From assembly GCA_046329865.1 (NCBI GenBank), contig JAXLTW010000001.1, positions 129,494 to 193,493 of the forward strand: a DNA stretch of 64,000 nucleotides. The letters run 5' to 3'. The stretch is from Chitinophagales bacterium (lineage in GTDB: Bacteria; Bacteroidota; Bacteroidia; Chitinophagales; JADIYW01). Made by a program: the position numbers and the translations under genes. The notes below the pieces were generated by a model. That model did not search any database and was not told where the DNA came from. It saw only the letters and a program-made list of their open reading frames with translations. Shown piece after piece: positions 2,251 through 57,399 of the stretch (its first letter is position 1; every line of letters starts with the position of its first letter).

Positions 2251-2564
2251 AGCAATATCAAATTGTCCTGGTTAATCTGGATCCGACAATTGGAAGTGAA
2301 ATGAAAAAGACTCGTCCATGTATAATTATTTCTCCAGATGAAATGAATAAATATTTGCAGACAATAGTTATTGCCCCAATGACAACTAACTCTAAAAGTT
2401 ATCCAACCCGAGTTGCGGTTAAACACGGTCGGACAAAAGGCTGGGTAGTGCTCGATCAAATAAGAACAATAGACAGACAACGTATAGTGAAAATTCTCGG
2501 CAATTTAACCGAAAAAGAAATTTATAATATCAAAAGTATTATTCATGAAACCTATGTTGCATAA
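2241..2564 (+). CDS. PemK/MazF-family type II toxin (mRNA interferase)
   Basis: 107 aa. Signature-like segments are IVLVNLDPTIGSEMKKTRPCIIISPDEMN and VVLDQIRTIDRQRI. Translationally coupled to the antitoxin. Confidence 0.85.
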   Translation: MELKQYQIVLVNLDPTIGSEMKKTRPCIIISPDEMNKYLQTIVIAPMTTNSKSYPTRVAVKHGRTKGWVVLDQIRTIDRQRIVKILGNLTEKEIYNIKSIIHETYVA

Positions 2565-3074: not shown

Positions 3075-3482
3075 ATGAAAAGCATTATCCGTACCATGAC
3101 AGCGATTATTTTGACAACATTGACCTGCACAGCTTCTTATGGCAAAACAACAGCTATGACCACAGACCGGTATCATCTGCTGTTTAATAAAATAGACTAC
3201 AGCATTGTCGGCACCTGGGAAATGAATGGAGTCAATCAGCCCGGCCAACAGCCCGTATTCTGCCAGTTCAATGCCAATGGCACCTTCATTTCCTTTACCT
3301 GCACGCAGGGAGTTTACCATATAACCGGCAGGGGAAAATGGCAGACAAAAGACCGCGTTATCTATATCATTCACGGAGAGGAAAAGTCTGTTCCAATCTT
3401 GTATGAGGCAGAGGAGAACCGGTTGGTTTTCGGGAATCAGGTAACATACACCAAACATAACCCCGTATATGCCAGCCGTTAA
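3075..3482 (+). CDS. small secreted protein, lipocalin-like (hypothetical)
   Basis: 135 aa with an N-terminal signal-like segment (MKSIIRTMTAIILTTLTCTASYG) and a GTWEM motif. Preferred over the antisense 154-aa ORF, which looks non-protein-like. Confidence 0.5.
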   Translation: MKSIIRTMTAIILTTLTCTASYGKTTAMTTDRYHLLFNKIDYSIVGTWEMNGVNQPGQQPVFCQFNANGTFISFTCTQGVYHITGRGKWQTKDRVIYIIHGEEKSVPILYEAEENRLVFGNQVTYTKHNPVYASR

Positions 3483-3628
3483 ACAGAAAAGGATGTCCCA
3501 TTCATTATATTTTATGCGCTTCAATCATTAGATTTGAGTATGAAATGAGCAGGAGTGAATTTGCACACTAAACGAAATGTTTAATAGGCGAATTCCATCT
3601 GCACCGCTAAAAACAATAAAATAAACAG

Positions 3629-4924
3629 ATGAAAAGATATACTCCTTTTATACTCCTTTTCCCGGCAGTGTTCATCATCCTTTCCTGTAAGAAAGAAAAT
3701 ACCCCCGTCAGGGATGCCATTCTTCCCATTGTCTTTGTACATGGCTATTCCGGCAGCGGGGATTCCTATACCAAAATGATCGGGTATTTCCGGGCGAACG
3801 GGTATCCTGCCAATAAATTATATACCTATGACTGGAATACGCTCGACCTGCAGAGTGCACCCAAAAATACCAAGCCGCTGAATGACTTTATACAGGAGGT
3901 GCTCCGGAAAACCGGATACGATAAAGTGAACCTGGTAGGCCATTCGCTGGGCGGCTCACTCACCTTTAACTATTGCAGCAACACAGCATATGCCGGCTCC
4001 GTAAACCGGCTGGCATGGCTGGCACCTTATCTGAAAGACAGAACCAAAATACCGGATTCGGCGATTGCCACGCTGAACCTGCGCAGCAATGCGGACTATG
4101 TGGTAACGGATACCAGTACGATTCCCTTTGCGGTGAACAAAGTTATCCCGGATGTGGATCACAATGAAATTGCTTCCTGCAAAGAATCATTTGTGGAGCT
4201 GTTCAAGTTCTTTAATGACGGCAAGGAACCGGTGACTACTGTTCCTGAAGACGACGTTATTCTGATTTCCGGTAAAGTGGTCAGTTTCCTGGAAAATGCC
4301 GTAAGCTCCGGCAATACCATTGACATTTATGATGTCAGCGCCACCGACGGAACACGACTGTCAACAACGCCTGTCAGTACGCTACACACAGATGCCAAAG
4401 GATATTATCCCGAATTTGCCGCAAAGAAAAACACCTACTACGAGTTCGAGGTTTCGACCGGCAGGGCTGCCGACCGGCCGGTTCACTTTTATTTTGAGCC
4501 GTTCAAAAATTCCAGTCATGTGATTTATCTGCGCACGTTCCCGCCACAAAGCAGTTTCCTGAATCTGGGATTCAACGCCCTTATTCCATTCAGTGAGACG
4601 CAAGGTGTTTCCATCTTTTTTTCCGTTTCCAAAGCACTCTTACTGGGCAAAGATGCCCTGACCATAAACGGATATGATTGCGTCACTGCCGACTTCTCAC
4701 AAAAAGAAATGAATACGCTGGCGTACTTTATGTATGACGAAAACAAAAATAACGTCTCTGATCATTCATCAGTTGCGCTATTCAGTAGTGCCACCACCTT
4801 CAAGGGTATCGATTTTGCGCTACCGATAAACGGATTCTCCACCTATAATTACAACGGAAGGATACTGCATACCCCTAACTGGCCATCTTCCTCAGACGGG
4901 TTGAGTGTTGCACTATTTTATTAA
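3629..4924 (+). CDS. lipoprotein alpha/beta-hydrolase (lipase/esterase) with a C-terminal domain of unknown function
   Basis: 431 aa. Lipobox-like FIILSC. Nucleophile elbow GHSLGG follows VFVHGYSGSGDSY. The C-terminal ~230 aa are beta-rich and unassigned. Confidence 0.75.
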   Translation: MKRYTPFILLFPAVFIILSCKKENTPVRDAILPIVFVHGYSGSGDSYTKMIGYFRANGYPANKLYTYDWNTLDLQSAPKNTKPLNDFIQEVLRKTGYDKVNLVGHSLGGSLTFNYCSNTAYAGSVNRLAWLAPYLKDRTKIPDSAIATLNLRSNADYVVTDTSTIPFAVNKVIPDVDHNEIASCKESFVELFKFFNDGKEPVTTVPEDDVILISGKVVSFLENAVSSGNTIDIYDVSATDGTRLSTTPVSTLHTDAKGYYPEFAAKKNTYYEFEVSTGRAADRPVHFYFEPFKNSSHVIYLRTFPPQSSFLNLGFNALIPFSETQGVSIFFSVSKALLLGKDALTINGYDCVTADFSQKEMNTLAYFMYDENKNNVSDHSSVALFSSATTFKGIDFALPINGFSTYNYNGRILHTPNWPSSSDGLSVALFY

Positions 4925-43919: not shown

Positions 43920-43971
43920 AACCAATCCTTTAAATAATCATTAACAACTTTCTCCTTTCATTTATTCTTTT

Positions 43972-43979
43972 TAATTTAG
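43972..43979 (+). promoter_or_regulatory. weak -7-like box TAATTTAG, 6 nt upstream of the polycysteine sORF ATG
   Basis: 7/8 match to TAnnTTTG. No clear -33 TTTG partner seen. Confidence 0.25.
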
Positions 43980-43985
43980 TTGCAA

Positions 43986-44036
43986 ATGAAATTAGTAGTC
44001 AGCCTATTTAATTGTTGCTGTGCAAACCCGCAATAG
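43986..44036 (+). CDS. candidate leader peptide MKLVVSLFNCCCANPQ (three consecutive Cys codons)
   Basis: ATG AAA TTA GTA GTC AGC CTA TTT AAT TGT TGC TGT GCA AAC CCG CAA TAG, read directly. It lies in the leader of the sulfite-reductase operon and is followed by a terminator. Below the ORF-track size cutoff. Confidence 0.45.
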   Translation: MKLVVSLFNCCCANPQ

Positions 44037-44066
44037 ACGGATAGGTCAATTATTATATAAAATTAC

Positions 44067-44097
44067 AAGCCTGTCCATTAACGACAGGCTTTTTTTG
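44067..44097 (+). terminator. intrinsic terminator / candidate attenuator upstream of the sulfite reductase gene
   Basis: AAGCCTGTC-cattaac-GACAGGCTT is a 9-bp stem followed by a T7 run. The 5' arm CCTGTCC can pair alternatively with GGATAGG (44039-44045). Confidence 0.8.
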
Positions 44098-44101
44098 TGA
44101 A

Positions 44102-44183
44102 TGTCATTTCGAGCGTAGCGAGAAATCTTGTTTTGAAGAAACACTTAAATGTAGCAAGACTCCTCACTTCTTTCGGAATAGCA
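44102..44183. repeat. palindromic element of the GTCATTTCGA...GAGAAATC family in the sulfite-reductase 5' leader
   Basis: The arm TGTCATTTCGAGCGTAGCGAGAAATC (44102-44127) has an inverted degenerate partner at 44158-44183 (reverse complement TGCTATTCCGAAAGAAGTGAGGAGTC). Confidence 0.7.
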
Positions 44184-44195
44184 AAAAGAAAAACT

Positions 44196-46319
44196 ATGAG
44201 CATCATCATTACTAAAAACATTTCACCGGAAGCAGCCAGGGATATCTTTGAGTTGCAGCAAAAAATCAATGCCTTTCAAAACGGCGAAATGCCCGAAGAC
44301 AAATTCAAAGCTTTCCGGCTCACCCGTGGTGTGTACGGGCAGCGGCAGCTGGGTGTCCAGATGTTCCGCACCAAATTTCCATTTGGAAAAATCACCCCAA
44401 AACAATTGGTGCGGGTGGCAGAATTGTCTGAACAATATGCCAGCAGCAACCTGCACTTAACTACCCGACAAAATATACAATTGCACTATGTGAAAGTAAC
44501 CGATGCACCGGCCATCTGGGCGGGTCTGGAAGACGTGGGTGCTACCGGCCGCGAAGCCTGCGGCAACACCGTTCGCAATATCACCGCCTCCTCCAGGGCA
44601 GGTATCGATCCGGATGAACCGTTTGATGTGGCACCATATGCCCGTGCCGCTTTCGAGTTTTTCCTGCGCAATCCGATTTGTCAGGATATGGGACGAAAAG
44701 TAAAGATTGCTTTTTCCTCTTCCGATAAAGACTCCGCCTATACTTTTCTCCACGATTTTGGTTTCATCCCGCGCATAGCAGACGACGAATGTGGTTTCAA
44801 AGTGGTCGTGGGCGGCGGACTGGGAGCACAGGCCATCCTGGCGCAGACCGCCTATGAATTTTTACACGAAGACCATGTGATTCCGTTTATGGAGGCCGCC
44901 TTGCGGGTATTTGACCGCTATGGGGAGCGCACCCGCCGTCATAAAGCCCGTATGAAATACCTGATTAAAGATATGGGCTTAGATAAATTTATGGAGCTCG
45001 TGGAAAAAGAACGCATCGCTAATAAAGTGAAGGAGTTCCGGGTGGATACCTCCTGTGTTGCGGATGGAGCACCCACTCACAACCACATTGCACCGCAGGT
45101 TGAAATTAAAAACCGGAAACGATATGAAGACTGGTTGAAGACGAATGTATTCGAACAAAAACAAGCCGGCTATTTTGCCGTAGCATTAAAAGTAACTAAA
45201 GGCGATATCAAACCCGATCAGGCACGCAAAATTGCGGAGATGGCGGAAAACTATGCTTCTGAAGATATGCGTATTACCATGAATCAGGGGTTATTGCTCA
45301 AATTTGTTCGAGAAGGCTCCTTGCCTTATCTCTTTCACGAATTGGACTTGATGGGGTTTGCGCATCCCGGATTTGATACGATTGCAGACGTAACCACCTG
45401 CCCGGGCACAGACACCTGCAACCTTGGTGTTACCAATAGCATGACTTTGGGCAAAGTGCTGGAAGAGGTAATTCAGGATGAATTCTACCATCTGATTTTC
45501 GACTCTGAAATTAAAATTAAAATCAGCGGCTGCATGAACTCCTGCGGACAACATATGGCAGCAAATATCGGACTGCACGGCAGCTCCATCAAAGTGGGCG
45601 AACTGGTAGCGCCCGCTATGCAGGTGGTGTTAGGCGGTGGCGTGGATATAAACGGGGTTGGCTCGGTGGGCGATAAAATCGTAAAACTACCGACAAAGAG
45701 AACTCCTGAAATGTTGCGTCTGATATTGAATGATTATGAGACCAACGGCAGCGAAGGTGAATATTTTAACGACTATTACCGCCGTCAGGGCAAGAACTAT
45801 TTTTATACGCTTTTAAAACCGCTGGCGAACGCAGATTTATATACCGATGATGATTTCATCGACTATGATGGCGTCGAACATTTCACACCTGAAATTGGGG
45901 TGGGCGAGTGCGCCGGTGTGATGTACGATATGGTAGGTCATATCATCAAAGATGCAGAAAACAAACACCTCGAGGCGACAGAACATCTGAAAATAAATAA
46001 ATATCCGGAAGCGATTTATTACGCCTACACCGGTTTTGTGATTGCGGCAAAAGCATTGCTGCTGAGTAAAGAGGTGGAATGCAATACACAGATTAAAATC
46101 TTAAAGGACTTTGATACGCATTTCGTACAGTCGGGAGCATTTATTATCGAAGGGGGTTTTGAAAATCTGGTACTAACCATCAATCAATACGAGCCGGAGA
46201 AAGAATTTGCAGAAAGTTATGTAACACATTTTCATCTGTTCCTGAAGAATGTGATTTCTTACAGAGAACAAAAAATGGGCGGTGACAAGCTGGTCATAGA
46301 AAGCAATTATAAAGCATAA
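44196..46319 (+). CDS. assimilatory sulfite (nitrite/sulfite) reductase hemoprotein, siroheme/4Fe-4S type, with an extra helical C-terminal domain
   Basis: 707 aa counted from ATG 44196 (MSIIITKN). Carries TTRQNIQLH, the cluster cysteines TTCPGTDTCNLG and SGCMNSCGQH, and two NirA/Sir half-domains. The last ~130 aa lie beyond the canonical core. Confidence 0.85.
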   Translation: MSIIITKNISPEAARDIFELQQKINAFQNGEMPEDKFKAFRLTRGVYGQRQLGVQMFRTKFPFGKITPKQLVRVAELSEQYASSNLHLTTRQNIQLHYVKVTDAPAIWAGLEDVGATGREACGNTVRNITASSRAGIDPDEPFDVAPYARAAFEFFLRNPICQDMGRKVKIAFSSSDKDSAYTFLHDFGFIPRIADDECGFKVVVGGGLGAQAILAQTAYEFLHEDHVIPFMEAALRVFDRYGERTRRHKARMKYLIKDMGLDKFMELVEKERIANKVKEFRVDTSCVADGAPTHNHIAPQVEIKNRKRYEDWLKTNVFEQKQAGYFAVALKVTKGDIKPDQARKIAEMAENYASEDMRITMNQGLLLKFVREGSLPYLFHELDLMGFAHPGFDTIADVTTCPGTDTCNLGVTNSMTLGKVLEEVIQDEFYHLIFDSEIKIKISGCMNSCGQHMAANIGLHGSSIKVGELVAPAMQVVLGGGVDINGVGSVGDKIVKLPTKRTPEMLRLILNDYETNGSEGEYFNDYYRRQGKNYFYTLLKPLANADLYTDDDFIDYDGVEHFTPEIGVGECAGVMYDMVGHIIKDAENKHLEATEHLKINKYPEAIYYAYTGFVIAAKALLLSKEVECNTQIKILKDFDTHFVQSGAFIIEGGFENLVLTINQYEPEKEFAESYVTHFHLFLKNVISYREQKMGGDKLVIESNYKA

Positions 46320-46320
46320 T

Positions 46321-47052
46321 ATGCCACAACCCAAACTCATACTCGTTGGTGCCGGGCCGGGCGATCCGGAACTCATCTCGCTGAAAGGCATCAAAGCCCT
46401 GCAGCAGGCAGATGTAGTAATGTATGATGCCCTGGTGAGTGAAGCGTTGCTGCAACATGCGCCGGATGCCCTTAAAGTATTTTGCGGCAAACGCGCCGGC
46501 TCCCACTATATGAAGCAGGACGAAATCAATCAGTTGATGGTAGAACATGCGCATCAATATGGTTGTGTGGTGCGCCTTAAAGGAGGAGATCCCTTCATCT
46601 TTGGACGCGGACAGGAAGAGGTCGATTACGCTGCACAACACAACATAGCGGTGGAGGTTATCCCCGGCATTTCGAGTGCTACCGCTCTGGCTACATCTCG
46701 TAACATCCCGCTGACCAAACGCGGCATCACGGAAAGCGTGTGGGTGACTACCGGCACCACGTCCTGCGGAGAACTTTCCGGCGATATAGAATTGGCCGCC
46801 CAATCTTCCGCTACCGTGGTGATCCTGATGGGAATCGGTAAGCTGACAGAAATTATTGAAGTATTTAGGCAACACAAGCCGGACACTTATCCGCTCGCCA
46901 TTATTCAAAACGGCACCCTGCCTGATGAAAAAATCATCTGTGGCACCCTGTCTGATATCGGACAAAAAGCACAGGAAAATGCCGTTTCCGCTCCTGCTGT
47001 CATTATCATTGGCGAAGTCGTGGATTGCTCCCGCTTACATACATTACACTGA
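46321..47052 (+). CDS. cobA: uroporphyrinogen-III C-methyltransferase
   Basis: 243 aa. Carries LVGAGPGDPELISLKG and VVRLKGGDPFIFGRG. Starts 1 nt after the reductase stop. Confidence 0.9.
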   Translation: MPQPKLILVGAGPGDPELISLKGIKALQQADVVMYDALVSEALLQHAPDALKVFCGKRAGSHYMKQDEINQLMVEHAHQYGCVVRLKGGDPFIFGRGQEEVDYAAQHNIAVEVIPGISSATALATSRNIPLTKRGITESVWVTTGTTSCGELSGDIELAAQSSATVVILMGIGKLTEIIEVFRQHKPDTYPLAIIQNGTLPDEKIICGTLSDIGQKAQENAVSAPAVIIIGEVVDCSRLHTLH

Positions 47053-47093
47053 AAGATTTGCTGTATCTTTATTATACCCTTTAACCGGAAAAT

Positions 47094-47684
47094 GTGAACA
47101 CGCTTTATCCCATATTTCTCAAAACCGAAAACTTGTCTATTCTGATCGTTGGAGGCGGAATGGTGGGTACGGAAAAACTGTCGTTCATTTTAAAAAATTC
47201 TCCGGAAGCGGTTATTACGGTTGTGGCAAAAGAAATTAGTAACGAGATCCGGTCGACCGTCGACCGTCGACCGTCAACCGTTTTGATAGAGAAAGCATTT
47301 GAACCATCCGATCTGAAAAACAAACAACTTGTCATTGCAGCAACCGCAGATAAAGAGTTGAATAAAGAAATTTACCTTGCAGCAAAAGAGAGGCAAATTT
47401 TAATCAATGTAGCGGACACTCCGGAGTAATGCGATTTTTATTTGGGAAGTATTGTCACCAAAGGTGATTTGAAAATCGCCATTTCTACTAATGGAAAATC
47501 TCCGACACTGAGCAAACGGCTGCGAGAATTTTTTGAAGCTATTTTACCCGACAATATCAATGACCTTATCCTGAACCTGAATACCTATAGAGAAACCTTG
47601 AAAGGAAATTTTGAAGAAAAAGTGGAGCAACTGAATGCACTTACCGCTTCTTTCCTCAAGAAAGATGCCCACAAAAACGATTAA
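47094..47684 (+). pseudogene. precorrin-2 dehydrogenase/sirohydrochlorin ferrochelatase (SirC/Met8-like), interrupted by an in-frame TAA
   Basis: ORFs 47094-47429 and 47442-47684 are in the same frame. The read-through sequence LINVADTPE*CDFYLGSIVTKGDLKIAISTNGKSP matches the conserved NVADTPxLCDFY...ISTNGKSP block, with TAA (47427-47429) where Leu (TTA) is expected. Rossmann motif IVGGGMVG at the N-terminus. Confidence 0.75.
47252..47279. repeat. heptanucleotide tandem repeat (GTCGACC)x3 + GTCAACC inside the sirC-like gene
   Basis: Read directly. It encodes STVDRRPSTV. The unit length is not a multiple of 3. Confidence 0.9.
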
Positions 47685-49057
47685 TACTTTTTAAATCTGC
47701 GTAGCAGAAAAGTATATCCCACACCGGACAGCAGCATATAAAATGGCATGAACGGCAATCGAAACCTCGGCGTATAAAAAATACCGGACAAGCCAGCGAA
47801 ATAAGCGATGATGAGCAGAATAAACAGACACACCATCCATTGCCGCTGCATAAAAACCAATTCTATAATACCCAAAAGCGCAGTAAAATAAACAACTCCC
47901 AGAAACAGCAATACAAAAATACCGACTACAATTTCTTTGGCAGATTTGGAATTGAAATATTTTTCAGCCAGCTGGAAAATACTTCCTGAATATTTTTCGG
48001 TATCGCTCCAGCGTTTGACCGGTATGTGCAAACGCTGCAGGATTACTTCACTGCCCATATTGAGATGAAGCTTGACGGTGCCGGACAAATGCGCTTTTAC
48101 AGCAGCGAAGAAATGTGTTTTCAGGTATTTTTTCGCCACTTGATTATAGACATCAGACTTCTCAAAAGTAAGTTGATGCAATCGTTCTTCCATATTTTCC
48201 GGCATTTCAGGTTTTAACTTTTCCGGTGCTGCTTCTTTGGAAATTTGTACAAACTCATTACAAACCTGTTCATAGGTTTTCTTCGCCAGGTTGACCTCTG
48301 TAAATGCGGCGTTGTAAAACAATAAATTATAACCGTTAATCGAACTTAATTCAAAATGTTGATACAGCTTATAATTCCGGTACATCCAGGGAATGATGGT
48401 AAGATATGCCAGCACCACCAGAATCGCTGCCTGTTTCAGGCGTTGTACCGGATTTGATTTTGGCCATACTAATAAAAAACCACCTAAGACAGCCGGCAGG
48501 TAAATAGCAATGGGTCTTGTCAGTATCAATATACCGGACAGTATTCCACAGAGAATAAATAAGTAAATTTTATTTTCCTGCATCGCCTTAATCAACAACA
48601 GCACACTGAGCAACAGGATAAACACGAACAAAATATCAGTATACAGATACGTTGAAAAAATAACCTGCTGCGGATCAAAGGCAAACAAGAACAGTGCGGC
48701 ATATCCGACAACGGTATTAGGAAATAACCGTTGACAAATCCTAAACAATAAAAACCCGCTGGCGGTATTCAAAAAAACCTGCACCAATAGAACTACCCAC
48801 GGTTTCGCGCCGAATAGGGCATAGAAAAAGGCGGCAAAGGCAGGATAGATAGGCGTTCTGAAAGTATCTCCGCAAAAAGAAAAGTCGAAAGCCAGGCATT
48901 TTGCCAGTATATTGTAACCAATCGCATCATAGATAAATACATCCTTTTGCAACACCTCTTCTCTCCAGGGCTGAAAAATCATAAACACCGTCAGTCGCAA
49001 CAAGAATGTCAGCAGCAGCAATCCGATCAATTTCTTATCTTTTAAATATGCGCTCAT
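47681..49057 (-). CDS. GT-C fold membrane glycosyltransferase (family 39/ArnT-PMT-like)
   Basis: 458 aa with about 11 TM segments. The N-terminal loop (DAIGYN) and overall topology are typical of GT39/83-type enzymes. Its stop overlaps the sirC-like stop in convergent orientation. Confidence 0.6.
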   Translation of the reverse strand: MSAYLKDKKLIGLLLLTFLLRLTVFMIFQPWREEVLQKDVFIYDAIGYNILAKCLAFDFSFCGDTFRTPIYPAFAAFFYALFGAKPWVVLLVQVFLNTASGFLLFRICQRLFPNTVVGYAALFLFAFDPQQVIFSTYLYTDILFVFILLLSVLLLIKAMQENKIYLFILCGILSGILILTRPIAIYLPAVLGGFLLVWPKSNPVQRLKQAAILVVLAYLTIIPWMYRNYKLYQHFELSSINGYNLLFYNAAFTEVNLAKKTYEQVCNEFVQISKEAAPEKLKPEMPENMEERLHQLTFEKSDVYNQVAKKYLKTHFFAAVKAHLSGTVKLHLNMGSEVILQRLHIPVKRWSDTEKYSGSIFQLAEKYFNSKSAKEIVVGIFVLLFLGVVYFTALLGIIELVFMQRQWMVCLFILLIIAYFAGLSGIFYTPRFRLPFMPFYMLLSGVGYTFLLRRFKKY

Positions 49058-56017: not shown

Positions 56018-56025
56018 TATCTTTA
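56018..56025 (+). promoter_or_regulatory. candidate promoter: -7 box TATCTTTA with -33 TTTG (55995-55998), 19-nt spacing
   Basis: 7/8 match to TAnnTTTG. It ends 4 nt before the ATG of the polycysteine sORF. Confidence 0.4.
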
Positions 56026-56029
56026 TTAT

Positions 56030-56071
56030 ATGAACCGGAAGAAAAATACGAAATGCTGCTGCACTTGCTGA
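56030..56071 (+). CDS. candidate leader peptide MNRKKNTKCCCTC (four Cys, three consecutive)
   Basis: ATG AAC CGG AAG AAA AAT ACG AAA TGC TGC TGC ACT TGC TGA, read directly. It lies in the leader of the Cys/Met-metabolism PLP enzyme gene and is followed by a terminator. Below the ORF-track size cutoff. Confidence 0.45.
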   Translation: MNRKKNTKCCCTC

Positions 56072-56103
56072 AGCGGTAATAGTATTTATAAATAATAAGA
56101 TTT

Positions 56104-56140
56104 AAAACCGCTTGTATTTTTTGCAGGCGGTTTTTTATTT
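56104..56140 (+). terminator. intrinsic terminator / candidate attenuator upstream of the transsulfuration gene
   Basis: AAACCGCTTG-9 nt-CAGGCGGTTT is a 10-bp stem with one G-U, followed by TTTTTTATTT. The 5' arm ACCGCTT can pair alternatively with AAGCGGT (56071-56077). Confidence 0.75.
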
Positions 56141-56153
56141 GGTAAATTTGAAT

Positions 56154-56213
56154 AGTTATTCTGAGCATAGTAAAGAATCTTTTGATGAGATTCCCGCTTT
56201 CGAGAGAATGACA
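56154..56213. repeat. palindromic element of the GTCATTCTGAGC...AGAATC family in the 5' leader
   Basis: Arms are AGTTATTCTGAGCATAGTAAAGAATC (56154-56179) and, inverted, TGTCATTCTCTCGAAAGCGGGAATCTC (reverse complement of 56187-56213). Confidence 0.7.
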
Positions 56214-56216
56214 ATA

Positions 56217-56251
56217 AAATACTTATTACTCAGTACTAATTACTAAATACT
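56217..56251. repeat. five phased heptamers NNNTACT (TACT at 56220, 56227, 56234, 56241, 56248)
   Basis: Read directly. The last unit ends 9 nt before ATG 56260. Same period-7 TACT pattern as 13051-13078. Confidence 0.85.
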
Positions 56252-56259
56252 AAACAACA

Positions 56260-57399
56260 ATGAAATTTGCAACCAAGGTCATTCATGCAGGCATAGAGCC
56301 GGACGCCACTTCAGGCGCTATCATGACGCCGATTTTCCAGACATCCACGTATGTGCAGGACGCACCCGGCGTACACAAAGGGTATGAATATGCCCGCACG
56401 CAAAACCCCACACGCAACGTACTGCAGAACCAGCTCGCCGCATTAGAAAACGGCAATTACGGAATCTGTTTTGCCAGCGGACTGGCGGCTACGGATGCGA
56501 TTGCCAAACTATTCAGCAGCGGCGATCATATTATTTCCTGCAATGATTTATACGGCGGCACCTATCGTATCTTCACCAAAGTATTCGGACGATTTGGTCT
56601 GGATTTTACATTTGTGGACATGACAGATGTAGCCAATATTGAAAAAGCGATTACCCCAAAAACAAAATTGATCTGGATTGAATCGCCGACCAATCCGATG
56701 CTGAATATTGTGGACATTGCGGCAGTTTGTTCTCTGGCCAGGAAGCACAATTTATTAGTTTGTGTTGACAACACCTTTGCATCCCCGTATTTGCAAACCC
56801 CGTTAGACATCGGTGCCGACATCGTTATCCATTCCGCCACAAAATATTTAGGCGGACACAGTGATGTGATACACGGCGCCATTGTAGTAAAAGAAAAGGC
56901 GCTGGCCGACCAGTTATATTTCCTTCAAAATGCATGCGGCGCCGTTCCGGGTCCGCAGGATTGTTTTTTAATTCTGCGAGGTATCAAAACCCTGCATATC
57001 CGGGTGGAACGCGCCTGTGAGAATGCAGAAAAGATTGCCACCTTTTTAAAGTCTCATCCAAAAGTGGAAAAAGTGAACTACCCCGGATTTGCCGAACACA
57101 AGGGGCATGAGATTGCAAAGAAGCAAATGAAAAAATTTGGGGCGATGGTGTCTTTCTCGTTGAAAGATGACAGCCTGCAAGCAGCCAATAAAGTTTTATC
57201 TTCCACCCATTTATTCTCACTGGCAGAATCATTGGGAGGCGTAGAGAGTTTGATCGGACATCCCGCCACCATGACACACGGAAGCATACCACTGGAAGAA
57301 CGCCAGAAAACAGGTGTGGTGGATTCCTTAATTCGTTTAAGCGTAGGTATTGAAGATGCCGACGATTTAATAGAAGATCTGAAAAAGGCATTGGGGTAA
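56260..57399 (+). CDS. Cys/Met-metabolism PLP-dependent enzyme (cystathionine gamma-synthase/gamma-lyase/beta-lyase family)
   Basis: 379 aa. Carries TKVIHAG, TPIFQTSTY and the PLP-lysine motif SATKYLGGHSD. Confidence 0.85.
   Translation: MKFATKVIHAGIEPDATSGAIMTPIFQTSTYVQDAPGVHKGYEYARTQNPTRNVLQNQLAALENGNYGICFASGLAATDAIAKLFSSGDHIISCNDLYGGTYRIFTKVFGRFGLDFTFVDMTDVANIEKAITPKTKLIWIESPTNPMLNIVDIAAVCSLARKHNLLVCVDNTFASPYLQTPLDIGADIVIHSATKYLGGHSDVIHGAIVVKEKALADQLYFLQNACGAVPGPQDCFLILRGIKTLHIRVERACENAEKIATFLKSHPKVEKVNYPGFAEHKGHEIAKKQMKKFGAMVSFSLKDDSLQAANKVLSSTHLFSLAESLGGVESLIGHPATMTHGSIPLEERQKTGVVDSLIRLSVGIEDADDLIEDLKKALG

Follow-up and report, generated by a model that had tools for sequence, protein, structure and literature searches.

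The 64-kb window analysed here, a stretch of 64,000 nucleotides from a metagenome-assembled genome (MAG) of a Chitinophagales bacterium, contains a gene for a NirA-family siroheme sulfite/nitrite reductase (sir) whose leader combines a short open reading frame (sORF) with three consecutive cysteine codons, an intrinsic terminator and, between the two, a segment complementary to the 5' arm of that terminator. This sir leader is likely to be a ribosome-mediated transcription attenuator of the trpL/hisL type that senses charged tRNA-Cys, as judged from its sequence and predicted folds. The elements exist, are mutually exclusive, conserved and covary. Such a mechanism had been put forward in a preliminary description of this DNA, and it is now supported computationally by the conservation of the Cys run, the alternative folds and the covariation.

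The gap between the end of a NifU-like gene (43919; Nfu_N and NifU domains, Pfam) and the start of the reductase gene at 44196 measures 276 nt when read directly from the sequence, and all features of this leader and its neighbouring genes lie on the + strand. The leader sORF MKLVVSLFNCCCANPQ comprises 16 codons plus stop (ATG at 43986, TAG at 44034-44036), with the putative regulatory Cys codons TGT-TGC-TGT at 44013-44021. Segment 1 (GCCTATTT, 44002-44009) coincides with codons 6-8 of the sORF and is a candidate anti-antiterminator or pause hairpin strand, while segment 2 (GGATAGGT, 44039-44046), the 5' strand of the predicted antiterminator, starts 3 nt after the stop codon. Segment 3 (44067-44076) contains the terminator 5' arm (44067-44075) as well as the stretch that pairs with segment 2 (44069-44076), and segment 4 consists of the terminator 3' arm GACAGGCTT (44083-44091) and a T7 tract (44090-44096). 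In a pattern scan, the terminator AAGCCTGTC-CATTAAC-GACAGGCTT (44067-44091) was found as a 9-bp stem with 5 G-C pairs and a 7-nt loop followed by T7. Direct reading thus reproduced every position that had been reported for the gap, the sORF, its three Cys codons, the terminator and the motifs GGATAGG (44039-44045) and CCTGTCC (44070-44076). The antiterminator proposed from these two motifs also held as a pairing, whereas its size had to be corrected from 7 bp with one G-U pair to 8 bp with two (44039-44046 with 44069-44076); it is mutually exclusive with the terminator.

The model that we propose can be described as follows. Transcription would probably start at or just before the sORF ATG. 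With plentiful cysteine, a ribosome would pass all three Cys codons, reach the TAG at 44034 and cover segment 2 (44039-44046), in which case segments 3 and 4 would form the terminator (44067-44091 plus U7) and transcription would end before sir. With scarce cysteine, the ribosome would stall at 44013-44021 and mask segment 1, leaving segment 2 free to pair with newly made segment 3; no terminator would then form, and RNA polymerase would enter sir-cobA-sirC. If the sORF were not translated at all, the hairpin between segments 1 and 2 (1:2) would form and termination would be the default.

Folding of the leader agreed with this design. The region 43975-44100 has a minimum free energy (MFE) of -33 kcal/mol (z = -3.7), and none of 200 shuffled sequences was as stable. 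Both the MFE and the centroid folds hold the terminator together with a second long hairpin, 1:2, which was not mentioned in the preliminary description and completes the classical four-segment design. In the core of this hairpin GCCUAUUU (44002-44009) pairs with GGAUAGGU (44039-44046), its outer stem joins 43993-43999 to 44049-44055, and its inner stem joins the Cys codons (44012-44018) to the CAA-UAG region (44030-44036). Segments 1 and 3 are alike, as are segments 2 and 4, i.e., segment 2 mimics the 3' arm of the terminator, and the duplex energies amount to -8.5 (1:2), -13.6 (2:3) and -15.6 kcal/mol (3:4). The two alternative structures were compared by constrained folding: with a ribosome footprint on any of the three Cys codons and the RNA truncated at 44082, the 2:3 antiterminator (GGATAGGT:GCCTGTCC) was the best structure (-11.3 kcal/mol), while a ribosome with its A site on the stop codon has a footprint (44019-44048) that covers segment 2. 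Segment 1 lies within the footprint of a ribosome stalled at the Cys codons.

A Chitinophagales MAG encodes a protein identical to the reductase. A profile of 13 reductase homologues retrieved 80 loci (designated by L numbers below) from one-genome-per-species contigs, with identities from 93% down to 52%, and upstream sequence was available for 79 of them. At least three consecutive TGY codons were present within 700 nt upstream of sir in 24 of these 79 Bacteroidota species genomes, against a background of 0.036 such runs per 700 nt in the remainder of the same loci. Carriers are nearly all Chitinophagales-type loci (L001, L003-L011, L013-L015, L018, L021), Adhaeribacter (L022, A. rhizoryzae DK36) and nine Pontibacter species; the Cys runs of L004 and L014 are interrupted (CCSFC and CCSCC). 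Leader peptides of the relatives include MKLSVSLFYCCCVCPQ, MNNLVSRYNFCCCIP, MGEKYQITTCCCCCFTTIAG, MMKSFFKNSNCCSCCLT, MNHSMPSYHNTAATMCCCCCCVAADSGGKVV, MKPFLPIPACCCCCCMNTSGRMCV and MTSFLREDAMCCCCRNSAERLDDAFTF, among others. The Cys-rich sORF is therefore kept before sir orthologues while the remaining peptide diverges, and conservation in orthologous leaders, proposed earlier as a check, was borne out. When both strands of the window and of 160 loci, about 1.3 Mb in all, were scanned for Cys-run sORFs followed by a terminator, nearly every hit was a leader of sir or of a second gene, a cystathionine gamma-lyase/synthase-family (CGL) gene whose own leader is described further below.

Conservation of the RNA structures was examined in several sets of leaders. 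In the 12 close leaders of alignment A2 the terminator is 93.5% paired, with compensatory G-C/A-U exchanges at two stem positions, the antiterminator is 97.9% paired, with the U of segment 2 accepting G and A variants of segment 3, and the whole 22-pair 1:2 structure is 84.6% paired. Twenty leaders were then considered in detail, namely 16 sir leaders (Chitinophagales and the Adhaeribacter locus L022, Pontibacter being left out) and four of the second family, and the best pairing partner of the terminator 5' arm was sought between the first Cys codon and the terminator. All 20 have a segment complementary to the 5' arm of their own terminator, starting 1-17 nt past the Cys run. Relative to the stop codon this segment lies 0-4 nt downstream, overlaps it or falls within the sORF (gap -35 to +4 nt). 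Pairing energies range from -9.7 to -23.5 kcal/mol, with z from -1.3 to -6.1 against shuffles (median -2.6), and the terminator GC stem and U-tract are conserved with compensatory changes in every one of these leaders. The partners differ in sequence, being GGATAGGT/GCCTGTCC in the window, GGATAGGT/ACCTATCT in L005, AGAGAGGCTT/AAGCCTTTCT in L022, GGGAAGG/CCTTCCC in L015, AAGCGGT/ACCGCTT in the second leader of the window and GGCAAGC/GCTTGCC in L084. Non-cognate pairings between the sir and CGL families are far weaker than cognate ones (-4 to -9 vs -11 to -14 kcal/mol). Within the sir leaders the cognate pairing ranked 1st to 4th of 8, and the comparison is uninformative there because their terminators all share an AGCCTnTC core. 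Alignment A3 contains segments 2, 3 and 4 of the 16 sir leaders, registered by hand on the AGG/CCT core. Five antiterminator pairs are changed on both sides in A3 (score 0.290 vs 0.198 shuffled, reached by 1 of 500 shuffles), as are six terminator pairs (0.357 vs 0.135, reached by 0 of 500), and sliding the partners by 1-3 columns reduces pairing from 85% to 19-53%.

These data also bear on the simplest alternative, in which the hairpin would simply end transcription of the NifU-like gene as its intrinsic terminator, with the Cys-rich sORF as a chance reading frame in an AT-rich spacer. The terminator does lie 148 nt downstream of the NifU-like stop codon on the same strand, and it would end NifU transcripts too. 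However, no NifU homologue is adjacent in L003, L009, L011, L013-L015, L018, L021 and L022, and in these nine loci the unit nevertheless stands directly before sir: the sORF-terminator unit travels with the reductase gene and not with the upstream NifU gene. The several-hundred-fold enrichment of Cys runs upstream of sir, the constant presence of a complement to the terminator arm that covaries with it, and a promoter-like box between the NifU-like gene and the sORF further speak against a mere NifU-gene terminator, the very case that had been named as fatal to attenuation, and we consider this explanation extremely improbable.

The sORF could instead encode a functional Cys-rich micropeptide (metal- or redox-active, or the precursor of a ribosomally made peptide that is modified post-translationally), its position reflecting co-expression rather than sensing. 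There is reason to believe that the frame is translated: in the close group the ATG is invariant, the frame and the stop position are conserved, the single indel measures 3 nt and TGT/TGC vary synonymously, and these features, together with the overlap of the VSL and PQ-stop codons with RNA stems, point to a translated frame. In favour of a micropeptide, the VSL and PQ residues are kept in the same close Chitinophagales group, and action in trans is known for certain leader peptides (peTrpL, PMC7298713). On the other hand, the VSL and PQ-stop codons fall on segment 1 and on the inner stem involving the Cys codons, and beyond the close group the peptides, 13 to 39 residues long, have only the Cys run (3-7 Cys) in common. 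The neighbourhood holds no modifying or export genes, and terminator and antiterminator always follow the sORF, which makes a micropeptide function very unlikely in comparison with attenuation.

Several points weigh against an attenuator, and they are best considered together. Even when a ribosome occupies the Cys codons, full-length RNA at equilibrium folds by preference into the terminator, which means that the choice has to be made kinetically, as in the trp attenuator. Part of the antiterminator conservation in the close group consists of U pairing with G or A and not of two-sided changes, the 1:2 element has little statistical support among divergent leaders (z between +0.6 and -2.8), and the hand register of A3 favours pairing in sequences that are related to each other. 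The Cys-run sORF is missing before sir in Spirosomataceae, Mucilaginibacter and one Chitinophagales MAG (L012). Profile hidden Markov models (HMMs) leave sulfite vs nitrite undecided as the substrate of the reductase, and we infer sORF translation, promoter position and the cysteine response from sequence and folds.

Two further features were noticed in the sir leaders of relatives. L009 and L011 carry a second run (TGTTGTTGT / TGTTGCTGTTGT) just after segment 2 and outside the sORF frame, about 30 nt downstream of the Cys run of the sORF and at -69/-73 relative to sir. Separately, L016, L017, L019, L023, L025 and L056 (Fibrella, Rudanella and other Cytophagales), whose sir leaders have no Cys sORF, have a small hairpin in common roughly 50 nt before the gene, at about -67 to -47 relative to the sir match. 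It consists of GCCGGA-loop-TCCGGC (GCCGAA/TTCGGC in L023), is followed by CTTTGTT and may be a different regulatory or terminator element. An Rfam scan of the sir leaders of Fibrella L016, Larkinella L020, Runella L043 and Mucilaginibacter L058 gave no match.

Upstream of the sORF, the candidate -7 promoter box TAATTTAG (43972-43979) ends 6 nt before the ATG, the position at which it had been described. It matches five of the six fixed positions of the Bacteroidota -7 consensus TAnnTTTG (PMC7366714). Boxes with 5 or 6 of 6 matches end 4-8 nt before the sORF ATG in 14 of the 20 leaders, including the divergent L021, where TACCTTTG stands 6 nt before the ATG; 5-of-6 matches to this consensus are common in AT-rich DNA. 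Such a placement suggests a 5' untranslated region (UTR) of roughly 0-5 nt, with the candidate start at or a few nt before the ATG. UTRs shorter than 10 nt account for about 3.7% in Bacteroides thetaiotaomicron (PMC7366714), so a leaderless start would be unusual, and we regard leaderless initiation of the leader sORF as plausible but somewhat doubtful. Another conserved box, TTAAATAATCATTAAC (43930-43945, + strand), lies 26 nt upstream of the -7-like box and 41-56 nt upstream of the sORF ATG. Its core TTAnnnAATnATTAA (pattern TTA...AAT.ATTAA) is invariant in nine aligned sir leaders whatever the upstream gene, NifU-free loci included, and TTAAATAATCATTAAC has a single exact match in the window and does not occur before the second leader. 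It may be a site bound by a transcription factor or belong to the promoter.

The box TTAAATAATCATTAAC suggests an extra layer of control, and it is one of the observations that would fit a leader regulating sir by other means, be it translational occlusion, termination that depends on Rho, or binding of a protein or metabolite to the RNA or to the upstream box. The experimentally studied mycobacterial Cys sORFs act translationally (10.1101/834739), and the first poly-Cys sORF of Pontibacter has no obvious terminator and sits behind an S-adenosylmethionine (SAM) riboswitch. Against such mechanisms, a canonical terminator with compensatory changes is present in all 20 analysed leaders (Pontibacter again left aside), and across leaders 85-160 nt separate the terminator from the sir start codon, a stretch that is variable and partly repeat-derived. 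No conserved pairing of the start region was noticed, although no dedicated search for it was made, and no Rfam riboswitch or protein-binding motif matches. Regulation by one of these other routes therefore seems improbable, and ribosome-mediated attenuation is retained as the preferred explanation.

The nine Pontibacter loci (L029, L030, L031, L033, L037, L040, L041, L050 and L075) show an arrangement of their own, with a SAM-I riboswitch aptamer (RF00162, 60-75 bits) before the Cys sORF. The 3' strand of its P1 stem ends 8-10 nt before the sORF ATG (in L033 the aptamer spans 3381-3484 and the sORF begins at 3493), the first sORF has 33-39 codons and ends in 5-7 consecutive Cys, and no clear terminator follows it. 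In six of the nine loci a second Cys-run sORF is located about 150-250 nt further downstream, followed by sir. This could possibly be a tandem of SAM riboswitch and Cys leader in which the riboswitch gates translation of the leader peptide. An even broader proposal, put forward here only tentatively and with more doubt than belief, is that the sir leader and the second leader of the window belong to an unrecognised, phylum-level cysteine attenuon of Bacteroidota, leaderless or nearly so and fused to SAM-I in Pontibacter, which would integrate SAM/methionine and cysteine status.

The second leader (56030-56136, + strand) lies where another instance of the same design had been indicated (56018-56140), and its terminator is unlike that of sir in sequence. 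Its sORF MNRKKNTKCCCTC occupies 56030-56071, with the stop codon at 56069-56071 and Cys codons at 56054-56062 and 56066-56068. Segment 2 (AAGCGGT, 56071-56077) overlaps the stop codon and pairs with ACCGCTT at 56107-56113, and the intrinsic terminator (56104-56136) has a stem formed by 56104-56116 and 56122-56134 and a T-tract at 56131-56136. Downstream on the same strand, at 56260-57399, is the gene for a pyridoxal phosphate (PLP) enzyme of Cys/Met metabolism (Cys_Met_Meta_PP) that belongs to the cystathionine gamma-synthase/gamma-lyase family; the leader would act on this gene as the sir leader does on its operon. In this case the Cys codons themselves serve as segment 1 (UGCUGCU pairs with AGCGGUA), and in constrained folds the antiterminator forms with a ribosome at Cys1-Cys3 and not at Cys4 or the stop codon. 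Searching metagenomes with the PLP enzyme yielded 80 loci of 90-64% identity. Homologous leaders (MKATNNNIKCCCINDKR, MKTTKNYIICCCIER and MKFISGFICCCCPLVLGKHE) were found only in the four closest loci (90-81% identity), and none of the distant orthologues (64-76% identity, 75 metagenome loci) has a Cys-run leader, which implies that the second leader is clade-restricted. It would thus appear, from these comparisons, to be a younger, clade-restricted attenuator with a different terminator sequence. The DUF1015 gene is not immediately upstream in L082 and L084. In L082 (approximately positions 800-940, on a contig of 3x coverage) the homologue of the second leader retains the Cys codons, the antiterminator and the terminator, with ATA in place of ATG. 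Either the sequence is in error here or the start codon has decayed or is an alternative one. NCBIfam models score the PLP enzyme at 533 bits both as cystathionine gamma-synthase (cutoff 513) and as bifunctional gamma-lyase (cutoff 594); by inference, induction under cysteine starvation would fit a cysteine-producing gamma-lyase better.

Such elements are more frequent in the 64-kb window than chance would give: it holds four ATG-initiated sORFs of 4-45 codons containing CCC, compared with 0.87 +/- 1.05 in first-order Markov simulations. The CCC sORFs at 3966-4016(-), antisense to the open reading frame (ORF) 3629-4924, and at 48592-48702(-), inside the span of the same-strand ORF 47681-49057, have no terminator context and were treated as chance. 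When intergenic sORFs with a run of any triple residue followed by a terminator were sought in the whole window, only the two Cys leaders were recovered besides one FFF sORF, 2505-2546(-), with a hairpin. The latter overlaps a MazF gene on the opposite strand, looks accidental and was dismissed. The gene in question (2241-2564) encodes a MazF-family toxin (NCBIfam endoribonuclease MazF, E = 1.5e-15; its 57 bits fall short of the curated cutoff of 120), and an 81-aa ORF (2005-2250) that precedes and overlaps it is probably the antitoxin. Rfam release 15 (4227 models) gave no match at gathering thresholds anywhere in the window, and even at E up to 10 neither leader was assigned to a family, the best sub-threshold scores being 14-26 bits against thresholds of 40-140. 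The weak matches (Phe_leader, His_leader, PyrR, L10_leader) reflect the hairpin-plus-terminator shape only and were discarded.

The putative regulated operon sir-cobA-sirC (44196-47684) comprises the reductase gene (44196-46319; 707 aa, NIR_SIR in Pfam), a uroporphyrinogen-III C-methyltransferase gene (cobA, 46321-47052) and a gene for a sirC-like precorrin-2 dehydrogenase (47094-47684), all on the + strand. The last of these is interrupted by an in-frame stop at 47427-47429 (TPE*CDFYLG vs TPELCDFYLG in the 93%-identical relative L001), which may reflect a nonsense mutation, a pseudogene or an error in the assembly of the MAG. An imperfect palindromic repeat of about 60-90 nt (GTCATTnCGAG...GAATCT ... 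AGATTC...TCGnGAATGAC) has only two copies in the 64-kb window, 44100-44189 and 56150-56218, each of them between the terminator of a Cys leader and its regulated gene. Further copies were seen at L001 3904-3994, L010 3915-3990, L018 3927-3994 and L083 2398-2476 and 3659-3744. The repeat was considered as an essential part of the attenuators and rejected in this role, since it is absent from the leaders of most relatives and one copy in L083 lies 3' of the CGL gene. It is probably an element resembling repetitive extragenic palindromes or miniature inverted-repeat transposable elements that prefers terminator-proximal sites.

Chitinophagales and Hymenobacteraceae are abundant in soil, water and wastewater, and a conserved Cys attenuator would give a regulatory handle on their sulfur assimilation. 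It would also inform enzyme function: a Cys leader favours sulfite over nitrite as the substrate of the NirA-family enzyme, and for the PLP enzyme at 56260 it speaks for a role in supplying cysteine (gamma-lyase-like) and against one in consuming it. Cys regulons could be mapped in metagenomes by searching for short ORFs that contain three or more TGY codons and precede a terminator. Promoters and translation signals of Bacteroidota differ from those of model bacteria. The element could also find use in genetic tools for this phylum, as a small part that responds to cysteine. Clues to related regulation exist: a transcriptome paper on Flavobacterium psychrophilum reported strong clues for leader-peptide attenuation of amino acid operons, cysteine being unnamed, and a paper on B. 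thetaiotaomicron reported sORFs in long 5' UTRs that are reminiscent of leader peptides. In line with the preliminary description, no account of a Cys leader in Bacteroidota, or of the control of their assimilatory sulfate reduction, was found in a full-text search of the literature, the coverage of which was incomplete and excluded most subscription journals. The sir leader is conceptually expected and well conserved, lies outside curated families and is apparently undescribed.

Compared with the classical attenuators of Escherichia coli (trpL, hisL, thrL, leuL and pheL), the sir leader is alike in having a four-segment layout with 2:3 and 3:4 hairpins, the 1:2 hairpin being clear in the window and in close relatives and weak in divergent leaders, an intrinsic terminator before the gene, tandem codons in the leader sORF for the amino acid of the operon, a stop codon that places the terminating ribosome over segment 2, and a terminator more stable than the antiterminator, with a kinetic choice between them. 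It differs in its predicted sensed amino acid (cysteine), in its Bacteroidota host, and in having no Shine-Dalgarno sequence and a 5' UTR that is probably very short or absent. It resembles them neither in sequence nor by covariance model, reaching 17.7 bits (Phe_leader) and 20.1 bits (His_leader) against the Rfam models for such leaders, compared with gathering scores of 55 and 49.

In the literature covered here, cysteine-specific leaders are known only from Actinobacteria, mycobacteria included, and from one prediction in Rhodobacterales. In Actinobacteria, Cys-run sORFs with the Cys codons near the stop were predicted upstream of cys operons and cbs (Seliverstov et al. 2005), and these candidates, unlike the sir leader, have no terminators (PMC1262725). 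The element uORFC-8-2 upstream of cysS in Rhodobacterales is a predicted attenuator with tandem Cys codons in the first stem and a U-run terminator (Brewer et al. 2021, PMC8632094), so a terminator-based cysteine attenuator is not wholly unprecedented. That prediction concerns a cysteinyl-tRNA synthetase gene as target, two Cys codons (positions 14-15) and Alphaproteobacteria only, and it is set apart from the sir leader by description and not by alignment.

The closest comparison is offered by mycobacteria, where the precedent mentioned in the preliminary description proved to be real (bioRxiv 10.1101/834739): polycysteine leaderless sORFs (Ms5788A, Rv2391A, Rv2334A and others) attenuate cysteine genes translationally (Canestrari et al. 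2020, 10.1101/834739; PMC13096801). Attenuation for cysteine mediated by upstream open reading frames was stated to have been undescribed before that study (10.1101/834739). In the mycobacterial mechanism a highly stable duplex forms between the 3' end of the sORF and the Shine-Dalgarno region downstream (10.1101/834739). Rv2391A is among the Cys attenuators of Mycobacterium tuberculosis and precedes Rv2391 (PMC13096801). The two systems share a poly-Cys sORF placed first on a sulfur-assimilation transcript and, in the model proposed here, de-repression of downstream genes by stalling at Cys codons; initiation may be leaderless in both. They are dissimilar in sequence, and the mycobacterial elements have no terminator/antiterminator pair, whereas here both structures are conserved about 100-160 nt upstream of sir. 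The sir leader would therefore supply a full terminator/antiterminator version of cysteine attenuation, the others being translational (mycobacteria) or predicted (Rhodobacterales cysS). Rv2391 encodes SirA, a sulfite reductase of the NirA family, and one and the same enzyme family would thus carry Cys leaders in two phyla, by different mechanisms.

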